Below, piece by piece: positions 35,552 through 54,293 of a stretch of 64,000 nt of DNA. The position numbers and the translations under genes were made by a program. The number at the start of each line of letters is the position of its first letter. Position 1 is the stretch's first letter. Below the pieces are notes generated by a model that saw only the letters and a list, made by a program, of their open reading frames with translations, was not told the DNA's origin and ran no database searches. Source of the DNA: Betaproteobacteria bacterium HGW-Betaproteobacteria-22 (lineage in GTDB: Bacteria; Pseudomonadota; Gammaproteobacteria; Burkholderiales; Methylophilaceae). The stretch is from assembly GCA_002842285.1 (NCBI GenBank), contig PHCJ01000015.1, forward strand, positions 278 to 64,277, written 5' to 3'.

Positions 35552-35923
35552 ATGCAACATAGGCCAAAAAGTTTGAATCTGTTTCAGGTACGATTATCAA
35601 TTAATGCGATAGTGTCTATATTGCATCGTATCAGCGGCATGATATTGTTTTTAATATTGCCTTTTCTTTTATTGGCAATGTATGTTTCCTTGGAAAGTGA
35701 GTCAGGTTTTATATGTGTTGTGGCTCTAATGAAACATTGGTTATTTAAGATGTTTTTGATTGGGGTTTCGTGGGTTTTTTTTCATCATTTTTATGCGGGG
35801 CTCCGCCATCTGTGTCAGGATATGAACTGGATGACAAACTTGCGCGAAGCTAGTTATTCTGGACGGATAGTACTTTTCTTAGATTTGGTTTCTGTTATGT
35901 TATTTGCGCGCATGGTTTGGTAG
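35552..35923 (+). CDS. sdhC: Succinate dehydrogenase cytochrome b556 subunit
   Basis: RPKSLNL, SILHRISG, HHFYAGLRHL. Confidence 0.93.
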   Translation: MQHRPKSLNLFQVRLSINAIVSILHRISGMILFLILPFLLLAMYVSLESESGFICVVALMKHWLFKMFLIGVSWVFFHHFYAGLRHLCQDMNWMTNLREASYSGRIVLFLDLVSVMLFARMVW

Positions 35924-35934: not shown

Positions 35935-36127
35935 ATGTTAATAGCCCTTCTTACAAAAAAATACCCAGGTATGCGTTTATGGCTGGCGCAGCGTATCTCA
36001 GCCGTTGTGATGGCTGTTTATGTGTTGATTTTTATTGCTGCCGTTGCGATTATGCAGCCAGATGGATATGACACTTGGTTGCGCCTGATGTCACCATGGT
36101 GGTGGCGGACATTAACACTGATATTTT
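35935..36127 (+). pseudogene. sdhD: sdhD 5' part (codons 1-64), interrupted by the ISL3 element
   Basis: WLAQRISAVVMA motif; the frame reads 5 codons into the left TIR and stops at 36144. Confidence 0.92.
36120..36127 (+). repeat. Target-site duplication, left copy (GATATTTT)
   Basis: Identical to 51621-51628 and abuts the TIR. Confidence 0.93.
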
Positions 36128-36152
36128 GGGTCTTCGTAAAATAATGTGTATT
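36128..36152 (+). repeat. Terminal inverted repeat, transposase-distal end (GGGTCTTCGTAAAATAATGTGTATT)
   Basis: Matches the reverse complement of 51596-51620 at 22/25 positions. Confidence 0.92.
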
Positions 36153-36570
36153 TGAATTTTAAAACAATTTTTTATCTAACCTCAATATTGTGTATTTACT
36201 GCTTTTACTTATCTTACGTTTTAGTTTTAATTTTGTATAAAACTGCTTACTCTAAGATTAATTGACCACTAGTTCTTATTCATGCATATTTCACTATGGT
36301 CGCTTTGATGCATACTGATTTAGAGGTCAAATTAAACCTCAGTCAGTAACTTATTGATCATCAAAATTTATACAATGTCTGACCAAAATCATGCTTCCTG
36401 TACCTTAAAGTGAAGTGGCTGAGGGTGTCGAACAGGACTAACTGTTCGCTGGTGCGTCGTGTCAAGGCATGCCGCCGAATCCCTGGTCGTGATCCCTTCA
36501 GCCATTGGCAATGCGCCCATCGAACCGTTCGCGGGCGGCGACGACCTCGGGCTGGCAGTGCTCGGCCCAG

Positions 36571-37065
36571 GTCACTTACATCCGCACCAGTCAAGGCTGG
36601 TTATATTTAGCCATCGTACTGGATTTGTACTCAAGGCGTGTCGTGAGTTGGGCGTTTTCCAATCAACCTAATAGTGAATTAAGCGTACGTGCATTAGAAG
36701 TGGCTGTGCAACATCGCAGACCAAACCAGTCTGTTTTATTTCACAGTGACCAGGGTGTGCAATATTCCAGTGATACCTTTAGGAATGCGCTCAGCAAACA
36801 CAACATCACGGCGAGCATGAGCCGACGTGGTAATTGCCATGATAATGCGGTGACGGAGCGTTTCTTTAGAAGCTTGAAATCAGAAAGGGTTAACTATACA
36901 ATATAAAACACGAGATGAGGCGATGAAAGACATTGCTGAATATATTGAGCCGTTTTACAATCAAAGGCGTCGACACTCCACTTTAGGCAACATATCGCCT
37001 GCGGAGTACGAACAAAAGTATCAACAAAAACCTTAGCTTGTGTGGCAGATTGTTAGACCATTACA
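36571..37065 (+). pseudogene. IS3-family remnant: 3' part of OrfB integrase (frameshifted) plus right IR
   Basis: VTYIRTSQGWLYLA...FHSDQG...NAVTERFF; frameshift near 36900 to YKTRDEA...FYNQRRRHSTLG; IR 37040-37065 ending in CA. Confidence 0.88.
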
Positions 37066-37128
37066 AAAGACGTATGAGTATCATTTTTTTCTCTTTATCT
37101 CAACCTATTTCAACAGGAGTGACACATC

Positions 37129-38160
37129 ATGCATTACCGCCCACTTGGCAAATCCGGTCTGCTCGTTTCCGAGCTGTGTTTTGGCACTATGAGCTTTGGC
37201 CAGCAGGGCTACTGGGAGAAAATCGGCGGGCTTGACCAGTCTGCCGCCCAGCGCCTGGTCGATATCGCGCTGGATGCCGGCATCAATTTTTTCGACAGCG
37301 CCGATGTCTATTCCTACGGCCAGTCTGAGGAGATCCTCGGCAAGACGCTCAAGAGCAAGCGCGACAAGGTGGTGTTGGCCACCAAAGTGCGCGGACGCAT
37401 GAGCCAAGAGATCAACGACGTGGGCTTGAGTCGCCGCCACATCATTCAGAGCTGCGAGAACAGCCTCAGGCGTCTGGGCACAGATTATCTCGATCTCTAC
37501 ATAGTGCACAGCTTTGACTTCATGACGCCGTTGGAGGAAACGCTCTCGGCGCTGAACGACCTGGTGCATTCTGGCAAGGTGCGCTACTTGGGTTGTTCGA
37601 ACTACTTTGCGTGGCAACTGATGAAGGCGTTGTCCATCTCTGAGAGACACCATTGGGAGAAGTTCATTTCGCTGCAGGCTTATTACTCGCTGGTGTCGCG
37701 TGACGTGGAGATCGAACTCGCCCCGCTGTGCCGGGACCAGGGGCTGGGTATTACGCCGTGGTCGCCGCTGGGGGCGGGTTTTCTCACCGGCAAATACCCC
37801 CGTGGCGGCAAGGGCCCGCAGGACGCCCGGCGCAGTAAGGAGGATCACAATTTCATCCAGCTCGACGAGGACAAGGCCTACGCCATCCTGGACGAGGTGC
37901 AGCGCATCGCCAAGGCACGCGGCGTGAGTGCGGCGCAGGTCTCGCTCAACTATCTGCTGCGCAAGTCGCCAGTCAGCTCGGTGATCATCGGCGCCACCAA
38001 GCCCGAGCAGTTGCAGGACAACCTGAAGACTGTCGAGTGGCAGCTCTCGGCTGAGGAAGTCGCCGCACTTGATGAGATCAGCACACCGCCGCGACTGTAT
38101 CCACACTGGATGCTCGAGTTCACCCGCCTCGACCGCGACAACCCGGCCATGATCATGTAA
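37129..38160 (+). CDS. Aldo/keto reductase
   Basis: LCFGTMSFG, FFDSADVYS, LGTDYLDLY, WSPLGAGFL; AGGAG RBS; high GC. Confidence 0.93.
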   Translation: MHYRPLGKSGLLVSELCFGTMSFGQQGYWEKIGGLDQSAAQRLVDIALDAGINFFDSADVYSYGQSEEILGKTLKSKRDKVVLATKVRGRMSQEINDVGLSRRHIIQSCENSLRRLGTDYLDLYIVHSFDFMTPLEETLSALNDLVHSGKVRYLGCSNYFAWQLMKALSISERHHWEKFISLQAYYSLVSRDVEIELAPLCRDQGLGITPWSPLGAGFLTGKYPRGGKGPQDARRSKEDHNFIQLDEDKAYAILDEVQRIAKARGVSAAQVSLNYLLRKSPVSSVIIGATKPEQLQDNLKTVEWQLSAEEVAALDEISTPPRLYPHWMLEFTRLDRDNPAMIM

Positions 38161-38211
38161 TTGATCGGCGCCACTGTGGTGCAGATTGATGCACCCATCG
38201 AAGCGGATGCG

Positions 38212-38326
38212 GGCGGATTCGACTTTCAGCTTGAGCGTCGTCAATCTGCAAGGCGCCGAGACCGAAACCGGCGCCGATTACAACTCCATCAACCCCGGCG
38301 CCTATGTCTCTGCTTTGCAATTCGAT
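38212..38326 (+). pseudogene. Internal fragment of a glutathione S-transferase N-terminal domain (frameshifted)
   Basis: GFDFQLER then, after a 1-nt shift, VNLQGAETETGADYNSINPGAYVSALQFD; resembles the beta-class GST NPKGxVPAL region. Confidence 0.6.
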
Positions 38327-38345
38327 CGGCACAATAAGGAGAACG

Positions 38346-39143
38346 CTGCGCCAGCCCGCGCTGTTCATTCCCCACGGTGGCGGGCCCTGCTTCTTCATGG
38401 ACCGGGTCCCGCCCGACGCCTGGGCGCGGCATCGCACCTTTCTGGAAGGGCTGCCGGCCACCCTGCCCGAACGACCGCGCGCCCTGCTGGTGGTCTTGGC
38501 CAACTTGGAAGCGCCGCGGTTCACCGTGCAGAAGCAGGCCGCGCCGCCGCTGCTTTTTGACTATTCCGGGTTTCCGCCGCATACCTACGAGCTCACCTGG
38601 CCCGCGCCCTGCGTGCCCGAACTCTATGAGCGGGTGGCCGCACTGCTGGGCGCAGCGGGGCTGCCCTGCGGCTTCGATGCGGCGCGCGGCTTCGATCACG
38701 GCGTGTTCGTGTCGCTCAAGGTCGCCTTTCCGGCCGCCGACATCCCCTGCGTGCAGTTGTCGTTGCGAAGCGATCTCGACCCGGCCGCCCATCTGGCGGC
38801 GGGGCAGGCCCTGGCCCCGCTGCGCGACGAAGGTGTGCTGCTCGTCGGCTCCGGCAACAGCTACCACAACCTGGGGGTGATGATGCGCGCTTGGCGCATG
38901 GGTTCAACCGAGGCGCATGGTCTCGATTTCGACGCCTGGCTGAGCGAGGCGGTCAGCCATCCCGGCCCGACCGAGCGCAACCGGCGCCTGCTGGACTGGC
39001 TCCGCGCCCCCGGTGCTCGTGAGGCCGCGCCGCGCGAAGAGCACCTGATCCCGCTCCTGGTCGCTGCCGGCAGCGATAGCGGGGCGAAGATTTTCGAGGA
39101 CCGTGTGCTGGGCGCGGTGCAAAGCGCATTTCGCTTCGGCTGA
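38346..39143 (+). CDS. Extradiol ring-cleavage dioxygenase, LigB/DODA (YgiD)-like
   Basis: PALFIPHGGGP, RGFDHGVF, GSGNSYHNL, PREEHLIPL. AAGGAG points to CTG 38346; ORF track starts at ATG 38304. Confidence 0.85.
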   Translation: MRQPALFIPHGGGPCFFMDRVPPDAWARHRTFLEGLPATLPERPRALLVVLANLEAPRFTVQKQAAPPLLFDYSGFPPHTYELTWPAPCVPELYERVAALLGAAGLPCGFDAARGFDHGVFVSLKVAFPAADIPCVQLSLRSDLDPAAHLAAGQALAPLRDEGVLLVGSGNSYHNLGVMMRAWRMGSTEAHGLDFDAWLSEAVSHPGPTERNRRLLDWLRAPGAREAAPREEHLIPLLVAAGSDSGAKIFEDRVLGAVQSAFRFG

Positions 39144-39198
39144 ACGCAAGGGCGGCGCACCCTTTCGCCTTGCCATCCACACCACGGCGTGGCAGCGC

Positions 39199-40353
39199 TC
39201 AGCGCCGCACTACCAGCCCTGCCAGCGCAACCAGTGAGAACGCGGCGCCGGCGTAGAACGTCATCGAAGGACCTACCCACGTCCACAATCCGCCGGCAAT
39301 AACGCTGGCGGCGAGCAAGGCTGCGCCGCTCACCAGGTTGAACACGCCGAAGGCCGTGCCGCGAAGATCGGCCGGTGCGGCATCGGCGACCAGCGCCGAG
39401 AGCAGCCCTTGCGTTGCGCCCATGTGCAGGCCCCAGATCGCGGCACCCAGGCCGACCGCCCAGACGTTGGCGGCGAGCGCGAGAGTGATGTCGGCGGCGA
39501 TCAGAAACAGCACGCCCCAGACGAGCAGGCTGCGGCGGCTGCCGTTGTCGGAGAATTTGCCGAAGGGATAGGCGCTGGCCGCATAGACAACGTTCATCAC
39601 GATCAGGATCAGCGGCACCCAGGTCGCGGCGAGGCCCATGTTCTCGGCGCGCAGCAGCAGAAAGGCCTCGGAGAAGCGCGCCAGCGTCAGCACCGCGGCA
39701 AAGGCCACCACCCACCAGAAACGGCGGTCAAGCCGCGCGAGGCTGGCGCGGCTGATGGGAAACTGAGCCTTGGCTGCGGGGCGCGTGGCTTCGGGCTCCT
39801 CGACGCCGAACGCGATCAAGAGCACGCAAATGACGGCGGGCAGCACCGCAACCCAGAACACCAGGCGGAAATCGTCGTGGCTCGCCGCCATCAGACCCAT
39901 GGCGGCGAGCGGCCCGGCGAAGGCGCCCACAGTGTCCAGCGCCTGGCGCAGGCCGTAGGCCGCGCCGCGCTGCGCCTCAGGCGTCAAATCGGCGATCAGC
40001 GCATCGCGCGGGGCGCCGCGGATGCCCTTGCCGATGCGGTCGAGAAAGCGCGCCGCGAGCACCGCCGTGATCCCGGTGGCGAGCGGGAACAGCGGCTTGG
40101 TCAGCGCCGCCAGGCCATAGCCCAGCAGCAGCAGCGGTTTTCTGCGTCCGATCCAGTCGGAAATCACGCCGGAGAAGACCTTGGCAATCGAAGCCGTCGC
40201 CTCGGCGATGCCTTCGATGAAGCCGACCGACATCGCGGAAGCCCCCAGCACCGTCACCAGGAACACCGGCAGCAGGCTGTGGATCATCTCGGAGGAGAGG
40301 TCCATCGTCAGCGAGACGAGCCCCAGGGCGACGACACCGCGGGGAAGTTTCAT
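39199..40353 (-). CDS. MFS transporter
   Basis: SDWIGRRK and DRIGKGIRGAPRDALIAD motifs; about 12 TM helices. Confidence 0.9.
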   Translation of the reverse strand: MKLPRGVVALGLVSLTMDLSSEMIHSLLPVFLVTVLGASAMSVGFIEGIAEATASIAKVFSGVISDWIGRRKPLLLLGYGLAALTKPLFPLATGITAVLAARFLDRIGKGIRGAPRDALIADLTPEAQRGAAYGLRQALDTVGAFAGPLAAMGLMAASHDDFRLVFWVAVLPAVICVLLIAFGVEEPEATRPAAKAQFPISRASLARLDRRFWWVVAFAAVLTLARFSEAFLLLRAENMGLAATWVPLILIVMNVVYAASAYPFGKFSDNGSRRSLLVWGVLFLIAADITLALAANVWAVGLGAAIWGLHMGATQGLLSALVADAAPADLRGTAFGVFNLVSGAALLAASVIAGGLWTWVGPSMTFYAGAAFSLVALAGLVVRR

Positions 40354-40384
40354 GGGTCATTTCTCCTTGTTGTTGACCGTTGCC

Positions 40385-41515
40385 TCATGCCATCTGGCTG
40401 ATGCTCTTGCGGAAATGCAGCAGGGCACCCACGAAGAACACCAGGCCGATGACGGCCAGCGCCAGGAAATGCGGCCACACTACGTCGAAGCCCGCGCCGC
40501 GATAGAGGATGGCCTGGGCGGCGGCTACGAAATGGGTGGTGGGGGCGACCTCCATCACCTGCTGGGCGAGCAGCGGCATGCTCTCACGTGGTGTGGTGCC
40601 GCCGGAGAGCATTTGCATCGGCAGTAGCACCAGCATCATCAACAGGCCGAACTGCGGCATGCTGCGCGCCAGCGTCGCCATGAAAATGCCCATGGATGTG
40701 GTGGCGACGATGTGCAGGACCGCCATGGCGAGGAACAGCGCCACCGAGCCTTCGATCGGCACGGCGAGCGCCCCCTGCACGATGAAGTGCAGCGACAACG
40801 CCGTGGCCAGGAACACCACCAGCCCCATCGACCAGATCTTGCCCAGCATGATCTCGCCCGGAGTGACGGGCATCACCAGTAGGTGCTCGATGGTGCCGTG
40901 CTCGCGCTCGCGGATCACGGCCGCGCCAGCCAGGATGATGGAGATCATGGTGACCATGTTCATGATCTCCATCACCGAACCGAACCAGGTCTGGGTCAGG
41001 GCCGGGTTGAAGCGCATCCGCAGGGCAAGATCGACCGGCAGCGACGCACTGCTGCGGTAACGCTGCACGAATTCGTTGACCTCGCCGAGCACGATCTGCT
41101 GGGTATAGCCGCTGCCGGTGAAGGCCTGGCTCATGCGGGTGGCATCGACATTGAGCTGGATGATCGGGTTGCGTCCGGCCAGCACGTCGCGCTGGAAATT
41201 GGGCGGGATGTCGAGGGCAAAGGTGTACTCCCCCGCATCCAGCCCGGCATCGACCTCCGACAGCGTCACGCGAGCTGGTGGCATGAATTGGGGGGGATGG
41301 AAGGCCGAGATGATGCGGGCCGACAGGGGCGAGTCATCCTCATCGACAATGGCGATGGGCACCTTGTGCAAGGAGTCTGGCATGGCCGTGGCCGCCACGT
41401 AGATCATGAATGTGAAGCCCCAGACGATGAGCATCAGCATGATCGGATCGCGCGCCAGGCTCCACAGTTCCTTGATACCGAGGCGGTAGACGTTGGAGAG
41501 ATGGCGCATGGTCAC
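40385..41515 (-). CDS. yhhJ: ABC-2 permease, YhhJ-like
   Basis: [27 protein letters not shown]. Confidence 0.85.
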
Positions 41516-44307
41516 TTCTCCTGCTTTTTGAGTAAGGCGATGGAAACCCCCAGCATGACCAGCGCGCCCAAGCCGATCGGCAGCAGATAGCCGGCCAGAT
41601 CGGACAGCCCCAGGGCCTTGTTGAAGACCCCCCGGCTGACGATGATGTAGTAGGTGGTGGGGTTGATCTCCCCGATCACCCGGCCCATGCCTTCGAGCGC
41701 CGAGACCGGGTTGATCATACCGGCGAACTGAATGGCGGGCAGCATCGAGCCCATGGCGGCAAAGAACATGGCCGCGATCTGGCTGCGCGTGAAAATCGAT
41801 GCCAGCAGGCCGAAGCCCGTGGCGTAAGTGACATACAGCAGCGTGGCCAGCAGCAGCGCGATAAAGCTGCCTTTGATCGGCACTTCGAACAGGGTCACGG
41901 CCAAGAGGCTCATCAGCAGGAAATTCAGCAGCGCCAGCACGATATAAGGCAGTTGCTTGCCGATCATGAATTCGGCGCGGGTGACCGGGGTGACATAGAG
42001 GTTGATGATCGACCCCAGCTCTTTTTCTCGTACCACCGACAAGGCGGATAGGATGGCTGGGATCATCAGCAGCAGCATGGGAATGACGGCCGGCACCATG
42101 GAGGGCAGGCTTTTGACATCGGGGTTGTAGCGAAAGCGCGTCTCAACGGTGGCGGAGCCGGTCGACAGGTCACGACCATAACGAGTCTTGGCGATGTCCT
42201 GCAGCCACCCCTGATGCATGCCCTGCACATAGCCTTTCACCGTTTCGGCACGCTGCGGCATGGCCCCGTCGATCCAGGCGCCGATCTGAACCGGCTTGCC
42301 GCGCGCCACGTCTCGCGCGAACCCGGACGGGATCTCGATGGCCAGGCTGAGCTCGCCGCTTCGCATGCGCCGGTCGAGGTCCGCATAGTCGGCAATGGGC
42401 GGGCGTTCGACGAAATAGCGCGAACCCGAGAGATTGAGGGCATAGTTCTGGCTCAGGCCGGTTTGGTCGCGGTCGAGCACGGCATAGGAGAGATCGTTGA
42501 CATCCATGGTGATGCCGTAGCCCATGATGAGCATCAGGAGCAGGCTGCCGAACAGCGCCATCACCAGACGTACCGGGTCGCGACGCAGTTCCTTGCCTTC
42601 GCGCAGGGTGTAGCTGAGGGTGCGCGCTAAGCTGAACGGGCTGCGCCGTACAGGCGTCGAAGGCCTGCCCATCGGCAGGCTCGGCGGCGGCTCCGCCCGA
42701 GCCACCAGTGCCGTCTCGCCAGCGCCGACTTTGACGGCTTCGCCATCGGCCTCCTGCAGATAGGCGATGAACGCCTCTTCCAGGGTGCTTACCCCGCGCT
42801 TTTCGATCAACGCGCCTGGCGCATCGCTGGCCAGCACCCGCCCCTCGTGCATCAGGGAAATGCGGTCGCAGCGCTCGGCCTCGTTCATGAAGTGGGTCGA
42901 AACGAAGATCGTCACCTTGTCCTGGCGCGACAGATCGATCAGCAATCGCCAGAAGGCGTCGCGCGCCACCGGGTCCACGCCCGAGGTCGGCTCATCGAGG
43001 ATCAGCAACTCCGGCCCATGCACCAGCGCCACCGCCAGCGACAGGCGCTGGCGCATGCCCAGCGGCAGCCGCTCGGGCAGTGCATCGGACACGCCGTCCA
43101 GCCCGAAACGCGCCAGCAGCTCGCGCACCCGTGCGGGAATCGCGGCCTGCGGCACGCCAAAGAGGCGCGCATGCAGCACCAGGTTCTGTTCGACGGTCAG
43201 CTCCGTATAGAGCGAGAACGCCTGCGACATGTAGCCGACCCGCCGCCGTGTGGCGATGTCGCGCGCATCCACCTTGTGGCCGAACAGCCAGGCCTCGCCC
43301 GCCGAGGGCGGCAAGAGACCGGTGAGCATCTTCATGGTGGTGGTCTTGCCGCTGCCGTTGGAGCCGAGAAAGCCGAAGATCTCGCCGCGGTGGATGCGGA
43401 AATCCACATGATCGACGGCCGTGAAATCGCCGAAACGCATGGTCAGCCCGCGCGCCTCGATGGCGATGTCCTCGCCATCGACAAACGGCGGAACCACGAC
43501 GGCATGGTGGCCGCGCCGCTTCTCTTCCGGCAGCAGGGCGATGAAGGCGGCCTCCAGCGTGGCGGTGCCGGTGCGCGCGTGCAGCTGCGCGGGCGAGCCG
43601 GTGGCGAGCACCCGGCCCGCGTCCATCGCCACCAGCCAGTCGAAGCGTTCGGCCTCCTCCATGTACGCGGTGGCCACGATCACGCTCATGCCGGGGCGGT
43701 TTTGGCGAATGCGGTTGATCAGCGACCAGAACTGCAGGCGCGCCAGCGGATCGACGCCGGTGGTGGGCTCGTCCAGAATCAAGAGCTCCGGGTCGTGGAT
43801 CAGGGCGCAGCACAGGCCGAGCTTTTGTTTCATGCCGCCGGAGAGCTTGCCCGCAGGACGGTCGAGGAAGGGGTACAAGCCGGTGGCCCGGGTCAGCTCG
43901 TCGATGCGCCGGCGACGCTCGACCGCGTTGTGGCCGAACAACCGGGCAAAGAACTGCAGGTTATCCTCCACCGACAGCGCCGGATAGAGGTTCTTGCCCA
44001 GACCCTGCGGCATGTAGGCGATCGCCGGACACACCTGGTTGCGGTGTGCTGCTCGGCGCATGTCGCCGCCGAGTACCTGCACCTGCCCCTGTTGCACCGC
44101 GCGCGCACCAGCCATCAGCGCCAGCAAGCTGGACTTGCCGACGCCATCCGGGCCGATCAGTCCGACCATGCAGCCGGCGGGAATGTCAAGGGTAATACCG
44201 TCCAGCGCCACGGTCTTGCCGTAGCGCAAACTAAGGTCTGCAAGGCGGGCGATTGGCACGGCAATGGCCTGGGCACTGATCGAGGCGCCCTGTGCGGCCG
44301 GTGTCAT
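41512..44307 (-). CDS. rbbA: RbbA-like ABC protein (two NBDs plus ABC-2 permease)
   Basis: [20 protein letters not shown] and [15 protein letters not shown]; C-terminal permease REKELGS. Confidence 0.88.
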
Positions 44308-45377
44308 TCAGGCACCTTCACCGCCAGATGCTGCGGCCACTGCGCCTGCGGGTCAATTTTAAGCCAGGCCACACCGGGCAGGCCGGTCTTGACCTGCTTC
44401 AGATGCTTTTGCAGCAGTTCTGGGTCGATGCGGGCCTTCACCCGGAACATCAGCTTTTGCCGCTCGCTGGCGGTCTCCACCGTCTTGGGCGTGAACTGCG
44501 CCACGCTGGCGACGAACGACACCTTCGCCGGAATCACATACTGGGGCGCAGCATCGAGCACGATGCGCACCTCGCCGCTCAGCGCCACCTTTCCGACCGC
44601 CGTCTCCGGCAGGAAGAAGGTCATGTAGACGTCGGAAAGGTCGATCATGTTGAGCACCTTGCCGCCGCCGCCGAGAACTTCGCCAGGCTGTGCCACACGG
44701 TACTGCACACGGCCATCGCGCGGCGCCTTGAGTTGGCTGTCCTGAATGTCCGCCTCGATGCGGGCGATGGTGGCGGCCAGGGCCGTGACGGTGGACTGGG
44801 CGCCGGTGACTTGGGCCTTCGCTGCGGCGATGGCCGACCGGCTGGCTGCCACCTGAGCCCGCGCCGCGGCCAGCGCGGCCTCCATATTGCGCACCGCCGC
44901 CCGGTCGTCATCGAGCTGCTGGGCGGAGGCCGCACCCTCCTTGGTCAGGGTCTCGGAGCGCGCCAAGCGCCGCCGGGCGTTCTCCAGCTCGCTTTCGCGC
45001 TGCACCACCACGGCCTGGACCACGGCCAGATCGCTCTCGCGCATCTTGACCTGCGCCTCGGCGCCGGCTACCGCATGTAGCGCCTGCTGCTGCTGGGCTC
45101 GCGCCTCGTCGCGCTGGGCATTGAGCACGTCGGTCTGCATGCGCGCCAGCACCTGGCCGACGGTGACGAAGTCGCCCTCCTGCACCAGGATTTCGGTGAC
45201 CCGTCCGGCATATTTGGTGGCCACGTCAATCTCGGTGGCTTCGATGCGGCCATTGCCGCTGATCAGGCCCGCATCCTGGCCGTTGGCGCGGAGATTATCC
45301 CACGCGGTCCAGGCAGCTATGGCGATGAGGAGGCCTGCCGCGGCAAAAATCAACATCTTCTTGAGGTTCGTTGTCAT
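44304..45377 (-). CDS. yhiI: HlyD-family periplasmic adaptor, YhiI-like
   Basis: [19 protein letters not shown]; probable ATG at 45377 (MTTNLKK). Confidence 0.85.
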
Positions 45378-45385
45378 CTTTTTTC

Positions 45386-46891
45386 TCACTTTCCATGATT
45401 CGGTCGAACGGGCGACGCCGGCGATGCGGCAATGTCCTGGCTGCCCCCGCCCAACGCGGCGTACAGGCGCACCTGGCTGGAGAGCAGGGCACGGCGCGCC
45501 TGCACCCACTGCTGCTCGGCGCTGAGCAGGTCGCGCTGCGCGTCCAGCCATTCGAAATAGGGGGCGCTGCCGTTGTCGTAGCGCAGCTTTACCAGGCGCG
45601 CGCGTTCGGCCTGCGCCTTGAGGGTGGCCTCGGCAATGCGCACCTGCTCGGCGAGCCACTGGCGCGCCGACATGGCGTCGGACACGTCGCGGAAGGCCGC
45701 CTGCACGCTCTTTTCGTAATTCACCACGGCCAGATTCCGGCGCACCTCGGCCAGTTCCAACGCGGCCTGGTTGCGTCCGGCATCGAAGATCGGCAGTGTG
45801 AGGCTGGGCGCAAAGCGCCAGGCCTTGCTTCCGGCATCAAACAGGCCGGACAGCTCGGTGCTGGCGGTGCCGAAGGAGCCGGTCAGCGTGATGCGCGGAA
45901 AGAAAGCGGCGCGCGCTGCGCCGATATTGGCGCCGGCCGCGCGCAACTGATGTTCGCTGGCCACGATGTCGGGGCGCTGCAGCAGCACCTCGGCAGGCAG
46001 GCCGACGGGCAGGTCCTGCGGCACGGCCCGGTCGTCAAGCTTTGCCGTTTGCAGGCCTTCGGGCAGCGGCGCGCCCAGGAGCAACGTCAGCGCATGGGCC
46101 TGCGCGGCGCGCGCCTGTTCGAGCTGGGACACCAGCGCACGGGCCTGTTGCAGCAGCGTCTCCACCTGCACCACTTCCATGCGGGCAATCGCCCCCACTT
46201 CGAAGCGCCGGGTGAAGATGCGCAAGGATTCCTCGCGGCTGGCGACGGTCTGGCGCGCCAGTGCGAGGCGCTCGTCCAGTTCCAGCAGACCGAACCAGGC
46301 ATCCGCCACCTGGGCGATCAGGCTCACCGTGACAGCGCGCCGTGCCTCGTCGGTGGCGAGATAATTTTCCAGCGCCGCCTCCTTGAGGTTCTTCACCCGC
46401 CCCCAGAAATCGAGCTCCCAGGCGGCCAGCCCCACACCGACCTGATACTGTTCAGCGGTCAGCGCCCGGCCAGTCGGGCTGAGGTCGGCCGGCGTGCGCG
46501 AGCGGCTGCCATCGGCGCCCACCGCCACGGTCGGGAACTGGTCGGCGCGCTGGATGCCATAGGCCGCCCGCGCTTCCTCAACGCGCAGCACCGCCGTCTG
46601 CAAATCGCGGTTGTTGGCCAAGGCCTGCGCAATCAGCGCCTTGAGTTGCGGATCGGCGAAGTAGTCGCGCCAGGCGATCTCCGGCGCAAGGCGTCCCACA
46701 GACGCCCCACCGGGCGACACCCCGGTATCGACCGGGTAGTTCGCGGGGATCGGTAGCGGCGGGGTTTCATGGCGGGGTGCCAGCGAGCAGCCGCTCACGG
46801 CCAGGACGCCGGCAAGCGCGCATAGGGCCACCCTGTCGAGCCGTCGATACGCGCGTGGCGCGCCGCCTACCCTGTTGGAAGCCTTCCTCAT
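45386..46891 (-). CDS. Outer-membrane efflux factor lipoprotein (NodT/OprM family)
   Basis: Lipobox VSGC; [33 protein letters not shown]. Confidence 0.92.
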
Positions 46892-46930
46892 GTCGTTATC
46901 CTCATATTTCCATTTTTCCATTCTAATTCA

Positions 46931-48124
46931 TCAGCGAACGATTGAAAACCCGATCCGCACCTGTGTGCCACGGTCCAGGTTGTAATCGACTAAAGTCTCG
47001 CCATACCCCTTGAACAGCTGGAAATGCAGGAAGCCGCCAGTGCGGGCGAACAACGGGCGGCGCAAGGGCCAAGACAGGTCGAGCTGTGCGCTGCCCTTGC
47101 CGGACGTGCCGGTGCGCAGCTGTGCCAACGCTACCATGCCGTCCTCCCGGCCATAGCGCAGTTTCCAGTCCGCGTAGCCCCGATAGCGCTGGATGTCCGG
47201 ATTGTCTGCCTTGTCCAGGTAGCCATAGAAATTGGGCGCGAAGATCAAACTGCGTCCGTCGCCGAATTCCGTGCTCCAGACCGGCTGCACGAACAGCGTG
47301 TTGATGCTGCGCGAATTGGCGCCGTCCTTGCCGTTCGATTCGTGCTCGTAGCCGCCGCGCAACAGGTCGGGCATCAGCCCCTGGTCAGGCATCGCGCCCT
47401 GCCAGAACAGACTCGGCCGGTAGCTGGTGTCGCGAAACGGCGCCGAGTCCGCCCCCAGATCCCAGAGCGAAGTCTGCGTATAGCCGAAATGCAACCCGGC
47501 CAGGGGCGTAAACCACTCGACGGGCAGGCTGTCCGGATCGAACAGCCGATACTTGAAGCTGAACTGAAAGCGGGCGGTGGTATGGCTGCCGACGACGAAA
47601 TACATCGGCTCGTTGGCCGACAGCGCCGGTTCGTTCGGCGGGAACAGCAACGCACGGCCGGGAGCGGGCTGAGCCGCCGCTGTCTCGGCCTCGGCCGAGC
47701 GCATGCGTTCAATCGCATCCGGGGCGCCGACCAGCAAGGCCAGCCGGTTCGATGCGGCGCCGGCCAGTACCGCTCGCACCAGCCCGGAGAGATCGACCGG
47801 CAACACGCCGTGATAGGTCCGGCGCGTGTCCTCTGGCGTGGTCGGGCTGGCTGCGGCCAGCGTCACTTCCTGCGTCCTGCCATCGCGCGATAGCTTCAGT
47901 TGGAATGTTTCCGGCCAATCCGCCTGCGCGGCGGGTTTGACGATATCGAGCTGGAGCGTCGCGCCGGCCTGCGCCGTCTCGTCGGGGGTGGCGATCAGCC
48001 AGTTTGGTGCCGCCGCGGCGGGCGGCGCGGCAAACCACAGCAGGATGCCCAGCACCACCGCTGCCATCGCGCAAAAGCCAACCTGCAGCGTCTTGATCAA
48101 TCGCTCGAATGTCATGTTACGCAT
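46931..48124 (-). CDS. pldA: Outer-membrane phospholipase A with N-terminal extension
   Basis: FQFSFK, GYTQTSLW, GYEHESNG catalytic motif, GYGETLVDYN. Confidence 0.85.
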   Translation of the reverse strand: MRNMTFERLIKTLQVGFCAMAAVVLGILLWFAAPPAAAAPNWLIATPDETAQAGATLQLDIVKPAAQADWPETFQLKLSRDGRTQEVTLAAASPTTPEDTRRTYHGVLPVDLSGLVRAVLAGAASNRLALLVGAPDAIERMRSAEAETAAAQPAPGRALLFPPNEPALSANEPMYFVVGSHTTARFQFSFKYRLFDPDSLPVEWFTPLAGLHFGYTQTSLWDLGADSAPFRDTSYRPSLFWQGAMPDQGLMPDLLRGGYEHESNGKDGANSRSINTLFVQPVWSTEFGDGRSLIFAPNFYGYLDKADNPDIQRYRGYADWKLRYGREDGMVALAQLRTGTSGKGSAQLDLSWPLRRPLFARTGGFLHFQLFKGYGETLVDYNLDRGTQVRIGFSIVR

Positions 48125-48605
48125 CCGCAGGCGTTCCTGTCCAGCCGGTCGGCTGCCCGGCCGCGCTGCGGTAGCCGATCTCGATGATTTCCTCGGCGCG
48201 GTCGAATTCCATGAAGCGCACCGCGCCCAACGGCGGCTGGATGAGGATGTCCGGCTTGTCGTGGCGCAGGGTGGCCTGGGTGATGCGCGCCTGCATGATG
48301 TAGAGCGAAGCCAGCAGCACGCCGATGATGCCCGGCAGCGGTTCCTGGTGCGGCCATGCGCTGACCTGGGCCAGGGCTGTCATTCGTTGAAAATCGACGT
48401 ATGGCAAAATCTTCGCTTCGACCAAGTCCAGCACGCGTTTTTGGTTGCCGGTTTGAATTTCCTTGTCAGCTTTGGCAAAATCCAGCGCTTCTTGACTGAT
48501 CCGCTTTACCAACGCGTCTGGAGCCTCCTGTGCGACGGAATGCTGCGCAAGTGCCATTCCCCCGAACATCAAAATAAGCACAAATATTTTTCGCAGAATG
48601 TTCAT
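48117..48605 (-). pseudogene. In-frame chimera: MlaC/Ttg2D N-terminal fragment fused to a patatin (RssA-like) C-terminal fragment
   Basis: APDALVKRIS...ILPYVDFQRMTALA joined near 48369 to ...KPDILIQPPLG...FMEFDRAEEIIEIG; GC rises across the junction. Confidence 0.7.
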
Positions 48606-48706
48606 TTTTTGTCTTTCTGGATAAGGATTAAGGAGCGCCCATGTTGATTTCTCAACAAACGAATCCGCTGGTGTCGGCATGGCGCACGTAGATTAGTCCA
48701 TCGCCG

Positions 48707-48844
48707 CAGGCGCGCTGTCAGAAAACCGGTCAGGGGCATGAAGATCGCCGCCGCGACGATATAGGAGGTCAATACCCAGGAAATCTGATCCTGGGTCGCG
48801 CCCATTCTCCCCTGCATGTGCGGCAACGCCACGTTGGTGATGGT
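48707..48844 (-). pseudogene. Fragment of a DHA2 (EmrB/QacA) efflux MFS gene
   Basis: TITNVALPHMQG...QDQISWVLTSYIVAAAIFMPLTGFL. Confidence 0.8.
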
Positions 48845-49110
48845 GGCTTGCCGGTCGTTAGCATAGGGCCGGCGTTCCACCAATTCCGCTTCGCCAACTC
48901 GTCGATTAGGCGGGCGAGCGTTATGGGCTGAACTTCCGGCATGTCTGCCAAATCGGCCTGGCGGACGCCCTCATTGCGAGAGACGTAAACGAGCGCACGC
49001 GCCTGAGTTAGTGTGAGAGAACTTCCTTCCAGTCGCTGCTTGAAGGCCTTCCGCATCAACCGGGAAACATCCGCCACGAGAAAACCGAGACTGTCTTGCC
49101 GCAATTCCAT
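48845..49110 (-). pseudogene. MarR-family regulator, frameshifted and 3'-truncated
   Basis: LGFLVADVSRLMR...QPITLARLIDEL; frameshift near 48885 to LVERRPYANDRQA, then joined to the emrB fragment. Confidence 0.8.
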
Positions 49111-49125
49111 AGCGCGCCATCAATG

Positions 49126-49170
49126 TAATAAGCATTGCTTATTATAAGTCTAGTTTACCAAAACTATCAA
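49126..49170 (-). promoter_or_regulatory. marR promoter (TTGATA-18-TATAAT) overlapped by a 19-bp palindromic operator TAATAAGCA-T-TGCTTATTA (49126-49144)
   Basis: Perfect 9-1-9 dyad 16 bp upstream of the marR start, overlapping the -10 box. Confidence 0.7.
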
Positions 49171-49195
49171 GAGGGCAGCGTGTAGAAGGTGTCTG

Positions 49196-49255
49196 TCAGA
49201 ATGAGCTATACCTCTCACCAATCATGGCATCGTCTTCTACTAACAGTAGTCTCAT
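49196..49255 (-). pseudogene. First 14 codons of an OmpR/QseB-type response regulator (MRLLLVEDDAMIGE), then stop
   Basis: Manual translation of the minus strand; classic receiver-domain N-terminus, too short for the ORF track. Confidence 0.65.
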
Positions 49256-49447
49256 AAATCTTTTTTATCCGTAAACAAATGAAGTAATTTCAACGTCGAA
49301 AACTAAACTAGCCGTTGGTTCATCTGATATATAATCAGGGTATTATATAAAGACTTAACAAAAACTTAAGAATAGAGGTGCCCAATAGTTTAAATGGTCT
49401 GTATCCATTAGAATCAATAGTCAGTTTAAATAATAATTGGCTGTCAA

Positions 49448-49475
49448 CTAGCTATATTAATACTCGTATAGCTAG
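49448..49475 (-). terminator. Hairpin at the transposase stop codon
   Basis: CTAGCTATA-N10-TATAGCTAG; no clear U tract. Confidence 0.4.
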
Positions 49476-50812
49476 ATCTCACCACGTTCGATCATCGCTA
49501 CTAATTTATCAATATCCACACCATAGTTCTTAGGTTCTTCTTTTGGTTGTGCTGATGGGGGTAAATCATTCAACGTTGCATATCCCATAAATGCAACGTC
49601 ATATTGAGCCTCACGACGATCAAACTTCGGTCTATTCTGTACGATCTTATGTGAGCCTCTGGAGAACAATATTTTTGCTCGCAACGCTTCAAATGAATAA
49701 CCTCGGCCAAGACGGTTTAGCACCCTGATGAGGCTATTCAATGATTCGGTATAAGCATTGGTGATTGGGTGATTAAAGTATTCCAGAATGTATGGCTGCC
49801 AATTAGACCATGCAGTGATGATAGGCTCATAATGTCCACGCAACTCTGCTGGAATGCTCTTTAGCCATTGTTCATAGAGCATTTGAGCCTGTTGTTTGGA
49901 TGGCGCCTGATAGATGTTAAAGAATTCTTCCTTTAATCTGTACCCTTCACCAAGTAATGGGTAATTCTTAGTCCATCCGTCCAGATTGAAATTCTCCTGG
50001 TCAGTCAATTGACTTTGACGGCGTAGCAATACAAAACGATCATGCATCAGGCCACGACGTTGCTTAGGTGACAGTTCCGCACGCAATGACTTTCTAACAC
50101 TTTCCATCGCGACATTCGCCATACGCACGACATGGAACTTGTCCACTACGACTTTAGCATCTGGTATTACTTCATTCACAGCTTCACGATAAGGGCGCCA
50201 CATGTCCATTGCCACATATTGCACAGTATCTCGATCTTTTAGACTAGATAGATAGGTGGCAATAGTTTTCTTGTTTCTGTTCGGTAATAGATTAATCGCA
50301 GTGTTGTTATGCAGATTAGAGATCACAGCACGAGGCTTCTTTATGATGTGAATTTCATCAATGCCCATCCACTTCGGTGTTTCAAACTTGACGGTGCGCT
50401 CCAGTTCGTTCACGTAATCGCTGAACACGTTACGAATAGTTCCTTCAGTGACACCAATTTCTTCAGCAATGCCCGTGAAGGTATTGGTCATCGAGCGTTG
50501 GCCAATCCATTTCACTAAACGCTCAGTCATCCAGCGACTGGCATTAACCTCTGGTAAATGTTCCATGAAGGTTTTACCGCAGGATTTGCATTTAAAGCGT
50601 CTGGCATCGACGTAGATGCCCACGCGCTTGCCGTGCATGGGGAGATCATGCACCAGCACTTCTACACGGCCATATCCGACAACCTCACGACTACGGCAAT
50701 TAGAACATATCGTTACAGGTACTGCAGTCTCAGCCTTAATGTGGTAGTCATGCTCAGATTCATTACTGCCAAGGACCTTATAGGCAGTCAGGTTCAGTAC
50801 ATTGCGATGCAT
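49472..50812 (-). CDS. ISL3-family transposase (intact)
   Basis: Zn finger CSNC/CKSC, VHDLP, GIDE, AMDMW, DKFH, TNAYTESLN; 446 aa. Confidence 0.93.
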   Translation of the reverse strand: MHRNVLNLTAYKVLGSNESEHDYHIKAETAVPVTICSNCRSREVVGYGRVEVLVHDLPMHGKRVGIYVDARRFKCKSCGKTFMEHLPEVNASRWMTERLVKWIGQRSMTNTFTGIAEEIGVTEGTIRNVFSDYVNELERTVKFETPKWMGIDEIHIIKKPRAVISNLHNNTAINLLPNRNKKTIATYLSSLKDRDTVQYVAMDMWRPYREAVNEVIPDAKVVVDKFHVVRMANVAMESVRKSLRAELSPKQRRGLMHDRFVLLRRQSQLTDQENFNLDGWTKNYPLLGEGYRLKEEFFNIYQAPSKQQAQMLYEQWLKSIPAELRGHYEPIITAWSNWQPYILEYFNHPITNAYTESLNSLIRVLNRLGRGYSFEALRAKILFSRGSHKIVQNRPKFDRREAQYDVAFMGYATLNDLPPSAQPKEEPKNYGVDIDKLVAMIERGEI

Positions 50813-51198
50813 TACGATTTAAACTGAGAGCTGGATTGTTGAACAAGTTGTTGTAGAACATCCTTGGTTTGTTGTTCTAATTCAGGCAGATCGTACTTTA
50901 TTGTTTTCCAGACGATTTCCAAGTCCACTTTAAAGTACCCGTGGGCAACGGCATTACGCATTTCGTAAGCAAAAACTAACGGTAACTCTGGGTGTAATTG
51001 AGCGAAGTCTTGATAGTATTTATCTATGTTGTTACTGGCTTCACCAATGACCTCGATATTGCGAATTACTGCATCTTGCACCAACTCATTGTTCAAAAAT
51101 CCCACTTCATCTATGTCTTCGGTGTAGTGATGAATGCGTTGAGTAGCTTGAATGATGTGCGCTAGATAATCCTGTAATCTTTGTTGATCACGGCTCAT
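50812..51198 (-). CDS. HEPN/DUF86 (HepT-like) toxin RNase
   Basis: QDAVIRNIEVIGEA and R-X4-H motif RNAVAH followed by GY. Confidence 0.9.
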   Translation of the reverse strand: MSRDQQRLQDYLAHIIQATQRIHHYTEDIDEVGFLNNELVQDAVIRNIEVIGEASNNIDKYYQDFAQLHPELPLVFAYEMRNAVAHGYFKVDLEIVWKTIKYDLPELEQQTKDVLQQLVQQSSSQFKS

Positions 51199-51485
51199 AT
51201 GGGGATTGCCTCGGCTAGTACACTGTTGCGGAATGAATCTGGCAGCGCTTTGGGAGTTAGTACATCTACTGGCACACCCAGCAATACACGTAGTTTGTAT
51301 CGAATTGCGCCAATATCCATCAGTGTAGTGTCTTGCGTAGGGTCAATCAGAATGTCGAGGTCACTGGTTTCAGTATCGTCACCATGAAGTACCGAGCCAA
51401 ATACACGTGCATTTAAGGCGCGGTGTGACTTAACCACTTGGCGGATAGCTTCTCGGTTGGAATTTAAGGCGTCAGAGGGCTTCAT
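51195..51485 (-). CDS. Minimal nucleotidyltransferase (MNT/MntA-like) antitoxin
   Basis: VFGSVLHGDDTETSDLDIL (GS-x10-DxD), VDVLT; 96 aa. Confidence 0.9.
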   Translation of the reverse strand: MKPSDALNSNREAIRQVVKSHRALNARVFGSVLHGDDTETSDLDILIDPTQDTTLMDIGAIRYKLRVLLGVPVDVLTPKALPDSFRNSVLAEAIPI

Positions 51486-51517
51486 TTATTTTACTCGTCC
51501 ACACAACTTTACGAATT

Positions 51518-51546
51518 ATAATATAGTTAGCAACATTGTATGTCAA
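51518..51546 (-). promoter_or_regulatory. Sigma70 promoter of the MNT-HEPN-transposase operon (TTGACA-17-TATTAT)
   Basis: Plus-strand TGTCAA at 51541-51546 and ATAATA at 51518-51523, 17-bp spacer. Confidence 0.75.
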
Positions 51547-51595
51547 CATGATTTTACGAATTTTAACTATTGAGCAATGTTACGTAAAATTAGAC

Positions 51596-51620
51596 AATAC
51601 ACAAAATTTTACGAATACCC
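51596..51620 (-). repeat. Terminal inverted repeat, transposase-proximal end (GGGTATTCGTAAAATTTTGTGTATT on the minus strand)
   Basis: 22/25 match to 36128-36152. Confidence 0.92.
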
Positions 51621-51628
51621 GATATTTT
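51621..51628 (+). repeat. Target-site duplication, right copy (GATATTTT)
   Basis: Identical to 36120-36127. Confidence 0.93.
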
Positions 51629-51783
51629 TTATCAGCCTGATCATGCACGCGTGGATAGGCGTGAGAAATGTATTTAGAGATTATATAGTTAATATTAAAT
51701 TACGTGAGTCGCTGCAAATGGCAGTCGACCTGTTGTTGGTTGCATATCTGTGCTTGGTTTTTTATATTTTGTGGGGTATTTGA
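51629..51783 (+). pseudogene. sdhD: sdhD 3' part (codons 65-115)
   Basis: FISLIMHAWIGVRNVFRDY retains the heme His and the Asp-Tyr pair; directly upstream of sdhA. Confidence 0.92.
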
Positions 51784-53553: not shown

Positions 53554-54293
53554 TGATGAGGTTCTCTATTTACCGTTTCAACCCCGATGTGGATAAAAAG
53601 CCTTACATGCAAGATTATGAGGTTGAACTGCAGGAGGAAGATCAGATGTTGCTGGATGCACTGATTCGCATAAAAGAGCTAGATGATACGCTTTCGTTGC
53701 GCAAGTCATGCCGCGAGGGGGTCTGCGGTAGTGACGTCATGAATATCAATGGTAAAAATGGTTTAGCCTGTGTCACCAAGCTGGCTGATTTAAAGGAGCC
53801 AGTCGTGCTACGGCCCATGCGTGGGTTGCCCGTGATTCGTGATTTGGTTGTCGATATGACGCAGTTTTTTGAGCATTACAACTCGGTAAAACCTTATCTG
53901 ATCAATGATGACCCGTTGCCTGAAACTGAGAGGTTGCAGAGCCCGGAAGACCGCGCAAAGCTTGATGGTTTGTATGAATGTATCTTGTGTGGTGCATGCA
54001 CAACGGCTTGCCCTAGTTTCTGGTGGAATCCAGACACATTTGTTGGACCTGCGGGTTTGTTGCAGGCTTACCGATTTATAGTGGATTCACGAGATCAGGC
54101 AGAGACTGAGCGACTAGAAAATTTAGAAGATCCGGAGCGCCTGTATCGTTGCCACAATATTATGAGTTGTGTAGAAGCTTGCCCTAAAAAACTTAACCCC
54201 CAGGCCGCAATTGTGAAGATTAAGAAATTGAAAATTGAACGTGCAAAAGAGGGTAAGGCGGCAAAGAGCTTATTTTCAATCAAGGCACAGTGA
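53550..54293 (+). CDS. sdhB: Succinate dehydrogenase iron-sulfur subunit
   Basis: [34 protein letters not shown]. Confidence 0.97.

Follow-up and report, generated by a model that had tools for sequence, protein, structure and literature searches.

The sdhD gene in the DNA analysed here (a single stretch of 64,000 nucleotides, hereafter the window) does not exist as one continuous reading frame, as 15,493 bp of an ISL3-family cargo transposon sit after its codon 64, and this arrangement is most probably a recent, tolerated and otherwise ordinary insertional knock-out. The anatomy of the element (Table 1) and the identity of its host are clear, the latter being a Methylotenera-like member of the Methylophilaceae, a groundwater methylotroph, whose sdh locus adjoins fumA and acnB (2-methylisocitrate dehydratase) within the window. 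Alignments of SdhC, SdhA, SdhB and SdhE to their Methylotenera homologues cover practically the whole length of each protein, in agreement with the initial annotation of this DNA, in which these genes had been called intact.

The insertion is present in an abundant population: in X1, the sole sample with real depth (66-70x at the flank), read depth is even at 61-70x across flank and cargo, with contigs spanning both junctions, and one contig of a second sample, X2, spans the left junction. That foreign high-GC DNA was misjoined to a Methylotenera contig during assembly is almost certainly not the case, even if the abrupt GC rise inside the element (from 43% to 66%) is what such an artefact would look like: individual Logan contigs (35000-37055 and 48160-53000) connect the flank with the cargo across each terminus and show 0 mismatches, cargo contigs are covered at 61-66x, much like the flank, the JGI, ENA and Logan assemblies agree (100% identity over the parts compared), and inverted repeats together with a target duplication are a biological signature.

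Table 1. Coordinates of the interrupted sdh operon and of the inserted element, given as positions of the window
Feature	Position	Strand	Remarks
sdhC	35552..35923	+	123 aa, intact; Pfam Sdh_cyt E = 6e-23; full-length alignment to Methylotenera SdhC
sdhD 5' part	35935..36144	+	native codons 1-64 to 36127, then 5 element-encoded codons (WVFVK) and stop
Left target-site duplication copy	36120..36127	.	8 bp, GATATTTT
ISL3-family cargo transposon	36128..51620	.	15,493 bp; inverted repeats and 8-bp duplication; right terminus matches end of similarity in related copies
Left inverted repeat	36128..36152	+	25 bp, GGGTCTTCGTAAAATAATGTGTATT; includes one TTTACGAAK repeat
Conserved left-end segment of element family	36128..36422	.	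X4 mine-drainage contig
IS3-type transposase fragment	36505..36906	+	rve domain only; Pfam rve E = 2e-22
Cargo aldo/keto reductase	37129..38160	+	Pfam
Cargo LigB-type dioxygenase	38304..39143	+	Pfam
Cargo MFS transporter	39199..40353	-	Pfam
Cargo RbbA/YhhJ/YhiI-type ABC efflux set and outer-membrane factor	40385..46891	-	Pfam; gene calls in L001
Efflux permease	40385..41515	-	part of RbbA/YhhJ/YhiI-type set
Efflux fused ATPase-permease	41512..44307	-	part of RbbA/YhhJ/YhiI-type set
Efflux HlyD adaptor	44304..45377	-	part of RbbA/YhhJ/YhiI-type set
Efflux OMF	45386..46891	-	part of RbbA/YhhJ/YhiI-type set
Cargo phospholipase A1	46931..48124	-	Pfam
Gene remnants (MlaC-like, MFS N-terminus, MarR fragments)	48117..49110	-	partial Pfam matches
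Response-regulator gene start	49212..49255	-	first ~14 codons; comparison with sister copies
ISL3 transposase	49472..50812	-	446 aa; Pfam DDE_Tnp_ISL3 E = 4.5e-60, Zn_ribbon_ISL3, HTH_Tnp_ISL3
HepT-like (HEPN) toxin, predicted	50812..51198	-	Rx4H motif; Pfam HepT-like E = 6e-25; 1-nt overlap with transposase gene
MntA-like nucleotidyltransferase antitoxin, predicted	51195..51485	-	GSx10DxD motif; Pfam NTP_transf_2; 4-nt overlap with hepT
Promoter-like site, strong, facing mntA-hepT-tnp	51518..51546	-	TTGACA-17-TATTAT; consensus match only
sdhD 3' part	51577..51783	+	68 aa; ATG inside element; native residues 65-115 from 51629
Right inverted repeat	51596..51620	-	GGGTATTCGTAAAATTTTGTGTATT = reverse complement of 51596-51620
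Right target-site duplication copy	51621..51628	.	GATATTTT; perfect match to left copy
sdhA	51787..53553	+	intact; TTG start 4 nt past sdhD stop; residues 2-588 align with relatives, 85% identity
sdhB	53550..54293	+	intact; alignment to Methylotenera homologues
sdhE (flavinylation factor)	54290..54595	+	intact; Pfam Sdh5 and homologue alignment

The two parts of sdhD

Joining the two parts in silico at the duplication restores a DNA junction that reads ...ACACTGATATTTTTTATCAGCC... (TTAACACTGATATTTT to the left and TTATCAGCCTG to the right of the join) and yields a protein of 115 aa with H71, D82 and Y83, which aligns with E. coli SdhD (1NEK_D) gaplessly over residues 12-115 (E = 1.6e-11), so that both the length of the restored protein and the E. 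coli numbering of its ligands proposed by the initial annotation are borne out. The anchor features of a type C succinate:quinone reductase (Sdh_cyt fold, three TM helices, the haem His and the quinone-site Asp-Tyr) are all found in the restored sequence, which deviates at two family-conserved positions (D78N and W107L). Conservation reaches 90% or more in 32 columns of an alignment with 115 relatives, and the restored sequence agrees with 30 of them. These relatives, the full-length (112-120 aa) sequences among the protein-database matches listed, all have an uninterrupted SdhD, as do 57 of 57 related genome loci (115-aa sdhD, all Methylotenera or Methylophilaceae), which amounts to no split sdhD among some 170 relatives. 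In a search for an intact allele closer to the host, none of 5.8 billion protein clusters offered an intact SdhD more than 71% identical, and the collections searched contained no genome of the same species in which sdhD is whole; exact-protein look-ups for SdhA, SdhC and the C-terminal part gave no match either, probably since gene callers took other starts or skipped these ORFs. Runs X21-X25, which had shared 13-19% of flank words, were rejected as same-species carriers of an intact allele, as their identity reaches 93.6% only over 34000-35290 and is ~80% elsewhere, which makes them other species that give no information on the empty site.

The cut falls between SdhD residues 64 and 65, about 8 residues into the TM2 hydrophobic run (residues 56-77), and, being inside TM2, leaves the 69-aa N-terminal product (64 native residues and WVFVK) without TM2 and thus without a second hydrophobic segment, and the C-terminal part with a 17-residue remnant of TM2 instead of a whole helix, followed by the entire TM3 and including His71, Asp82 and Tyr83. 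The stop that the left inverted repeat was said to supply after five extra codons is indeed there, and so are the in-frame ATG at 51577, the 68-aa frame and the ligands of the C-terminal part; its description as carrying both remaining TM helices, however, does not hold given the truncation of TM2. The supply of these new ends by the transposon termini, presented as notable at the outset, is nothing beyond chance expectation: all three frames entering the left end hit a stop within 3-9 codons, and an in-frame ATG occurs in two of the three that exit on the right. Both ORFs, of 69 and 68 aa, are incidental by-products of the kind expected whenever an element inserts into a coding frame.

Polytopic membrane proteins, once split, are sometimes able to reassemble. 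Fragment complementation, in which the 69-aa and 68-aa parts would both be made, enter the membrane and form a functional haem b/quinone anchor together with SdhC, had been put forward but is highly improbable. Both ORFs are open, the C-terminal part does have the ligands, the TM2 remnant and TM3, and the position of the sdhA TTG, 4 nt past the sdhD stop, means that translation of this part could keep sdhA translationally coupled; against this, the cut lies within TM2 and deprives the N-terminal part of its second hydrophobic segment, and the element-encoded tail of the C-terminal part (MLRKIRQYTKFYEYP) would place four positive charges on the side due to face the periplasm, contrary to the positive-inside rule. 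The sole Shine-Dalgarno-like sequence for ATG 51577 is a GAG 3-5 nt upstream, which is not a proper ribosome-binding site (the start had rightly been described as poor in this respect), the best outward promoter-like site (51563-51590) would initiate transcription downstream of that very ATG, itself of a kind expected by chance in two of three frames, and the neighbouring element genes all face the opposite direction. A functional split gene would be marked by a conserved split and by each part having expression signals of its own, whereas the split seen here recurs in none of the 57 loci and 115 proteins compared, its ribosome-binding site is poor and its promoter doubtful, which leaves complementation with no positive support.

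An ISL3 backbone with exchangeable cargo

The element shows what is expected of the ISL3 family: a DDE transposase (PF01610, E = 4.5e-60, with PF14690 and PF13542), terminal repeats within the ~15-39 bp range, an 8-bp duplication and occurrence of the same element at different sites. Its inverted repeats are identical at 22 of 25 bases and have no further match in the 64 kb (none in 100 shuffles), and three TTTACGAAT subterminal repeats lie at the right end (51508, 51553 and 51608). The right terminus is fixed by related copies, similarity to which stops exactly at 51620, and, at the left end, the X4 mine-drainage contig matches 36127-36422 with 7 mismatches and diverges beyond. Two metagenome elements picked up by an inverted-repeat pattern scan proved to be unrelated, with only the repeat in common.

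Next to the transposase gene lies a predicted HepT/MntA (HEPN/MNT) toxin-antitoxin pair, suggested by the adjacency and overlap of the two genes and by the Rx4H and GSx10DxD motifs (MRNAVAH and GSVLHGDDTETSDLD, respectively, in the translations). This mntA-hepT-transposase right module recurs with 98.3-98.9% identity at no fewer than four other flanks, there with different efflux cargo; the backbone had no close relative among the plasmids searched, where the matches were limited to ISL3 and DUF86/NTase at 63-70%. The DNA of the efflux set in the window is 80.8% identical to a Thauera humireducens plasmid and has a GC content of 62-69% vs. ~46% in the host, and the response-regulator scar at 49212..49255 marks, by comparison with the sister copies, the spot where the usual cargo of the element family was swapped out. 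One ISL3 backbone (mntA-hepT-tnp, a single operon) thus circulates among communities of groundwater, mine drainage and wastewater, with efflux cargos of several genes that can be exchanged; the transposon is a more interesting object than the split sdhD per se.

A probable recent and tolerated loss

The whole 15.5-kb transposon would have moved as one unit into sdhD codon 64/65, bringing along mntA-hepT-tnp and the foreign high-GC efflux/redox cargo and truncating the SdhD membrane anchor, with SDH function presumably lost as a result. The insertion is probably also polar on sdhAB: sdhA, sdhB and sdhE are most likely severed from the operon promoter, because all the nearby element genes point away from sdhA, although the outward promoter-like sites at the right end, weak as they are (9/12 matches), mean that sdhAB may still be transcribed (a run search for RNA-seq runs containing sdhA found none). 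The event is regarded as recent on two grounds only, a perfect duplication and the lack of decay, the latter visible in the full-length neighbouring genes and in the 30 of 32 conserved SdhD columns that are kept.

Tolerance of such a knock-out would be explained by the metabolism of the Methylophilaceae, which rely on C1 oxidation and the RuMP cycle for their energy and carbon and already lack 2-oxoglutarate dehydrogenase, leaving SDH only in an accessory methylcitrate/oxaloacetate branch, so that SDH is presumably dispensable in this particular organism as well. The lack of 2-oxoglutarate dehydrogenase and the placement of sdhABCD in the methylcitric acid cycle cluster have been described (PMC4109929), Ca. 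Methylopumilus no longer has the methylcitric acid cycle (PMC6794327), and what SDH does in OM43 is unclear (PMC5120137). Fresh inactivation of SDH, one of the three outcomes initially envisaged, fits the perfect duplication, the undecayed flanks, a family with accessory SDH and an insertion found throughout an abundant population.

Fixation of the insertion by selection, with the loss of membrane SDH or the gain of efflux cargo at this site being advantageous in this groundwater, is unlikely. In its favour are the abundance of the carrier in X1 (66-70x), where no other allele was seen, the efflux and redox roles of the cargo and the loss of the methylcitrate/SDH branch in another Methylophilaceae lineage (PMC6794327), but a clonal bloom with a neutral insertion would give the same picture, and the organism has been found in one study only, with no comparison strain.

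The remaining outcome envisaged, a reversible switch in which precise excision restores sdhD in part of the population and thereby turns SDH on and off, is scarcely probable. Reversible IS-based switches exist in other bacteria and the perfect 8-bp duplication would permit exact restoration of the frame, yet no empty-site contig or joint was seen in X1, X2 or X3 at the level of contigs (where rare variants are dropped and contigs down to ~2x are kept), and the protein clusters contained no intact SdhD more than 71% identical. ISL3 is listed among the families with circular intermediates that presumably transpose by copy-out-paste-in, the donor copy being left in place (10.1101/2023.06.07.543989), so that excision would be no part of transposition. 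Furthermore, 15.5 kb bounded by short imperfect repeats would be a poor substrate for slippage-type excision, and the HepT/MntA pair should make losing the element costly; the switch, too, is left with no positive support. It is, taken together, very unlikely that either the split SdhD is functional (the C-terminal part, started from the element ATG and transcribed from an outward promoter of the ISL3 end, keeping sdhA coupled and assembling with SdhC, with or without the N-terminal part) or rare exact excision makes SDH phase-variable in the natural population.

With regard to SDH the finding is of little importance; a transposon hitting an accessory TCA/methylcitrate-branch enzyme fits the erosion that this branch is known to undergo in Methylophilaceae. 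It does, nevertheless, document how a mobile element brings about gene loss in groundwater bacteria that are uncultured and abundant.

Comparison with known systems

The probable recent knock-out resembles other cases in which an IS or transposon inactivates a dispensable metabolic gene (clean insertion, target duplication, truncated 5' ORF, incidental 3' ORF and intact downstream genes), differing in that it is seen in an uncultured, abundant natural population and not in a laboratory mutant. The restored protein shares with E. coli SdhD (PDB 1NEK chain D) its length, the numbering of His71 and Asp82-Tyr83 and the gapless alignment from residue 12, whereas the gene at hand is broken inside TM2 and departs from the family at residues 78 and 107. 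Among ISL3-family IS with passenger genes (e.g., ISPst2, which has two of them (PMC6305408), and ISPpu12), the DDE_Tnp_ISL3 transposase with an N-terminal zinc ribbon and HTH, the terminal inverted repeats beginning with GG, the 8-bp target duplication and the passengers between the ends are all familiar. The element described here is, however, far larger (15.5 kb, ~12 passenger genes and remnants), has the genes of the HepT/MntA pair and of the transposase overlapping in one operon and carries cargo swapped relative to its 98%-identical sister copies.

The reversible IS switches IS492/eps, IS1301/siaA and IS256/ica likewise involve a mobile element in a coding gene and a duplication allowing exact restoration, but no coexisting restored allele was detected here, the element is of another IS family and ten times their size. 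SdhB of Euglenozoa is naturally split, so that there, too, an SDH subunit is encoded by two ORFs; that split, however, is conserved across the lineage, with own expression signals for each half, whereas the split in sdhD is confined to a single population and is the work of a transposon.

The interrupted sdhD gene and its operon

Removing the element and one copy of its flanking repeat in silico joins the two sdhD ORFs, between which ~15.4 kb of other genes lie, into a 115-aa protein with H71, D82 and Y83 that aligns without gaps to E. coli SdhD (1NEK_D; residues 12-115, E = 1.6e-11) and, in the 32 columns where 115 relatives agree to ≥90%, matches them in 30 (the exceptions being D78N and W107L), which bears out the initial annotation of a transposon-split gene joinable across the target-site duplication. 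SdhC, SdhA, SdhB and SdhE, likewise claimed to be intact, do align nearly end to end with Methylotenera homologues, and, as the SdhA alignment begins at residue 2, the TTG start at 51787 is supported.

This is very probably a recent, tolerated insertional knock-out of sdhD. The perfect duplication and the undecayed neighbouring genes argue for a recent insertion and make fresh inactivation of succinate dehydrogenase (SDH) the best supported of the alternatives offered earlier, there being no positive evidence for functional halves or a switch. Expression of sdhAB after the insertion would need a new promoter; over 12 kb from sdhA into the element, every gene lies on the opposite strand, which makes read-through from the sdhC promoter unlikely. 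The outward promoter candidates are weak 9/12 matches only, and the better-placed one (51563-51590) has its predicted transcription start downstream of the ATG at 51577. As ISL3 members with outward promoters exist (e.g., IS1411; PMC9330008), some sdhAB transcription may nevertheless persist.

Reading inward from the left end of the element, a stop is encountered within 3, 5 and 9 codons in the three frames, and an in-frame ATG within an open stretch occurs in two of the three outward frames at the right end, so an insertion so oriented is expected to leave a short 5' ORF and an open 3' one. The new ends of the sdhD halves are, thus, not remarkable: both ORFs said to be completed by the transposon termini are present, but they match the expected by-products and are nothing special per se. 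Similarly, of “both remaining TM helices” attributed to the C-half, TM3 is whole, but the hydrophobic run of TM2 (residues ~56-77) is cut at 64|65, ~8 residues in, which leaves a 17-residue remnant in the C-part and no second hydrophobic segment in the N-part. That the two parts still form a working anchor is very improbable, given this cut within TM2, the four positive charges on the C-part tail (on what should be the periplasmic side), the poor translation signals of the C-part and the absence of a split sdhD from any relative (57 genome loci and a protein-cluster search), even though the sdhA TTG start lies 4 nt past the sdhD stop and C-part translation could, therefore, serve coupling.

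Features of the interrupted sdhD locus and of the inserted element
Feature	Position	Remarks
sdhC	35552-35923	upstream of interrupted sdhD
sdhD 5' ORF	35935-36144	MLIALL...RTLTLIFWVFVK*
Direct repeats	36120-36127, 51621-51628	GATATTTT, 8 bp, perfect
Inverted repeats	36128-36152, 51596-51620	25 bp, imperfect
TTTACGAAK copies	36132-36140, 51508-51516, 51553-51561, 51608-51616	right-end spacing 45 and 55 bp
IS3-type transposase fragment	36505-36906	cargo border
Truncated MlaC, MFS, MarR genes	48117-49110	cargo border
mntA-hepT-tnp	51485-49472	minus strand
Promoter-like site TTGACA-17-TATTAT	51546-51518	near-consensus, ahead of mntA-hepT-tnp
sdhD 3' ORF	51577-51783	MLRKIRQYTKFYEYPIFFISLIMHAW...ILWGI*; then sdhA, sdhB, sdhE

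The insertion in metagenomic data

The N-half matches Ga0246095_100142 (96,443 bp) of JGI metagenome 3300029818, from which the window probably derives, and the same DNA is found, identical, in ENA ERZ27239238 and Logan SRR3546452 (groundwater metagenome), although these assemblies possibly derive from the same or sibling samples and would then not represent independent populations. Metagenome run X1, which shares a 6,645-bp contig recorded for SRR3546452, contains single contigs without mismatches for 35000-37055 and 48160-53000, each spanning a junction into the cargo, at depths of 66-70x for the flanks and 61-66x for the cargo contigs; in another sample from the same study (X2), a 193-nt contig (36066-36258) spans the left junction. 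Misassembly of the element into a host contig is extremely improbable in view of such junction-spanning contigs, the equal flank and cargo depths and the concordance of three assemblies.

The restored allele, which precise excision in a subpopulation had been suggested to yield, was looked for at contig level only, and no empty-site contig, joint or loose end was seen in the metagenome contigs examined, including X1 and X2, where ~2x contigs are retained; contigs drop rare variants and could miss a small restored sub-population. A reversible switch is extremely improbable also because ISL3 appears in a list of families that form circular intermediates and presumably move by copy-out-paste-in (10.1101/2023.06.07.543989), so that transposition would not vacate the donor site; loss of the element should, moreover, be penalised by its HepT/MntA pair. 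No sdhA was found in the RNA runs. Selected, rather than neutral, loss of SDH is unlikely, and a clonal bloom would be indistinguishable from it with these data.

Runs X21-X25, with partial flank matches, were ruled out as same-species carriers (~80% identity over sdhA and acnB) and so have no bearing on the empty site. Contigs of X21-X24 (cave, biofilm, groundwater) are, in contrast, 93.6% identical to 34000-35290 (a LapA-like gene and the start of a LysR gene), so that the stretch directly preceding the sdh operon is locally much more conserved, or was recently exchanged. X21 (cave 2023) and X22 (biofilm 2024), labelled as different samples and studies, agree in every contig match, depth and mismatch list, as though one dataset had been deposited twice. 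Thin X1 contigs (~2x), ~87-89% identical to the sdhD start (35891-36013) and the sdhD/sdhA junction (51749-51833), show that this sample also contains another, related strain or species of Methylotenera, and are too short to reveal its sdhD state.

The host and its need for SDH

Searching 185,579 species-representative genomes with the restored SdhD gave 57 loci. The sdhD gene is uninterrupted in every one of them, and those with a genus or family name belong to Methylotenera, Methylophilus or Methylophilaceae. The best SdhD match is 68-69% identical (SdhA: ~85%); judging by these sequences, the host is a Methylotenera-like species without a representative genome. Above 71% identity, the 5.8 billion protein clusters searched contained only the two halves themselves and no intact SdhD.

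Methylophilaceae typically lack 2-oxoglutarate dehydrogenase, and sdhABCD is counted, together with fum and acn, in the methylcitric acid cycle cluster (PMC4109929); this cycle is wholly lost in Ca. Methylopumilus (PMC6794327), and OM43 has a branched TCA cycle and an SDH of uncertain role (PMC5120137). The order seen here, sdhCDAB-sdhE followed by class I fumarase and AcnB (2-methylisocitrate dehydratase), fits such a cluster. Loss of membrane SDH would plausibly be tolerable for a RuMP-cycle methylotroph, as we infer for this organism, and the sdhD split most likely amounts to no more than the inactivation of an accessory enzyme by a transposon, an ordinary event.

The ISL3 element and its relatives

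The element (15,493 bp, ISL3 family) is bounded by inverted repeats with 22 of 25 bases the same, a motif with only these two matches in the window and none in 100 shuffles. Its 446-aa transposase (DDE_Tnp_ISL3, Zn_ribbon_ISL3 and HTH_Tnp_ISL3 domains) is encoded last in an operon of overlapping genes (4 nt for mntA/hepT, 1 nt for hepT/tnp), in which MntA has the motif GSx10DxD and HepT Rx4H. With the toxin-antitoxin pair (50812-51485) in the same operon, transposase expression may be tied to its autoregulation. All four copies of TTTACGAAK in the 64 kb (0.75 expected by chance) fall within the element ends, the left inverted repeat having one and the right end the other three, and are likely subterminal transposase-binding sites.

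The middle of the element (~37.0-48.7 kb) has 56-69% GC, mostly 62-69%, versus ~46% for the host, and carries an aldo-keto reductase, a LigB-type dioxygenase, an MFS transporter, an RbbA/YhhJ/YhiI-type ABC efflux set with an outer-membrane factor, a phospholipase A1, and remnants of MlaC, MFS, MarR and IS3 genes. The fragments at its borders look like scars from earlier recombination or insertion events that assembled the cargo. The efflux block shares 80.8% identity with a Thauera humireducens plasmid.

The backbone module (49212-51620) was found at no fewer than four other insertion sites with 98.3-98.9% identity (NCBI, ENA and Logan assemblies, including GCA_001875625.1 and GCA_027310735.1; loci L064-L071), the similarity stopping exactly at 51620. 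At one of them (L068, ~653-661), it apparently extends 8 bases further into the flank, which could be the same target octamer, the end position being approximate. The sister copies carry different cargo (response regulator, histidine kinase, PepSY, OMF-MFP-RND pump); in the window, only the first ~14 codons of the response-regulator gene (49255-49212) are left before divergence into unrelated high-GC cargo, which indicates that cargo was exchanged while the backbone stayed the same. The left 295 bp of the element (36127-36422) also occur in a mine-drainage run, where other DNA follows.

The transposon, more noteworthy than the sdhD split, consists of an ISL3 backbone that bears a toxin-antitoxin pair, takes up interchangeable efflux cargos and is spread across metagenomes from the subsurface and from wastewater. 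Its kind is already known, as ISPst2 has two passenger genes (PMC6305408); the element described here is likewise an ISL3 member with passengers, but a large one.
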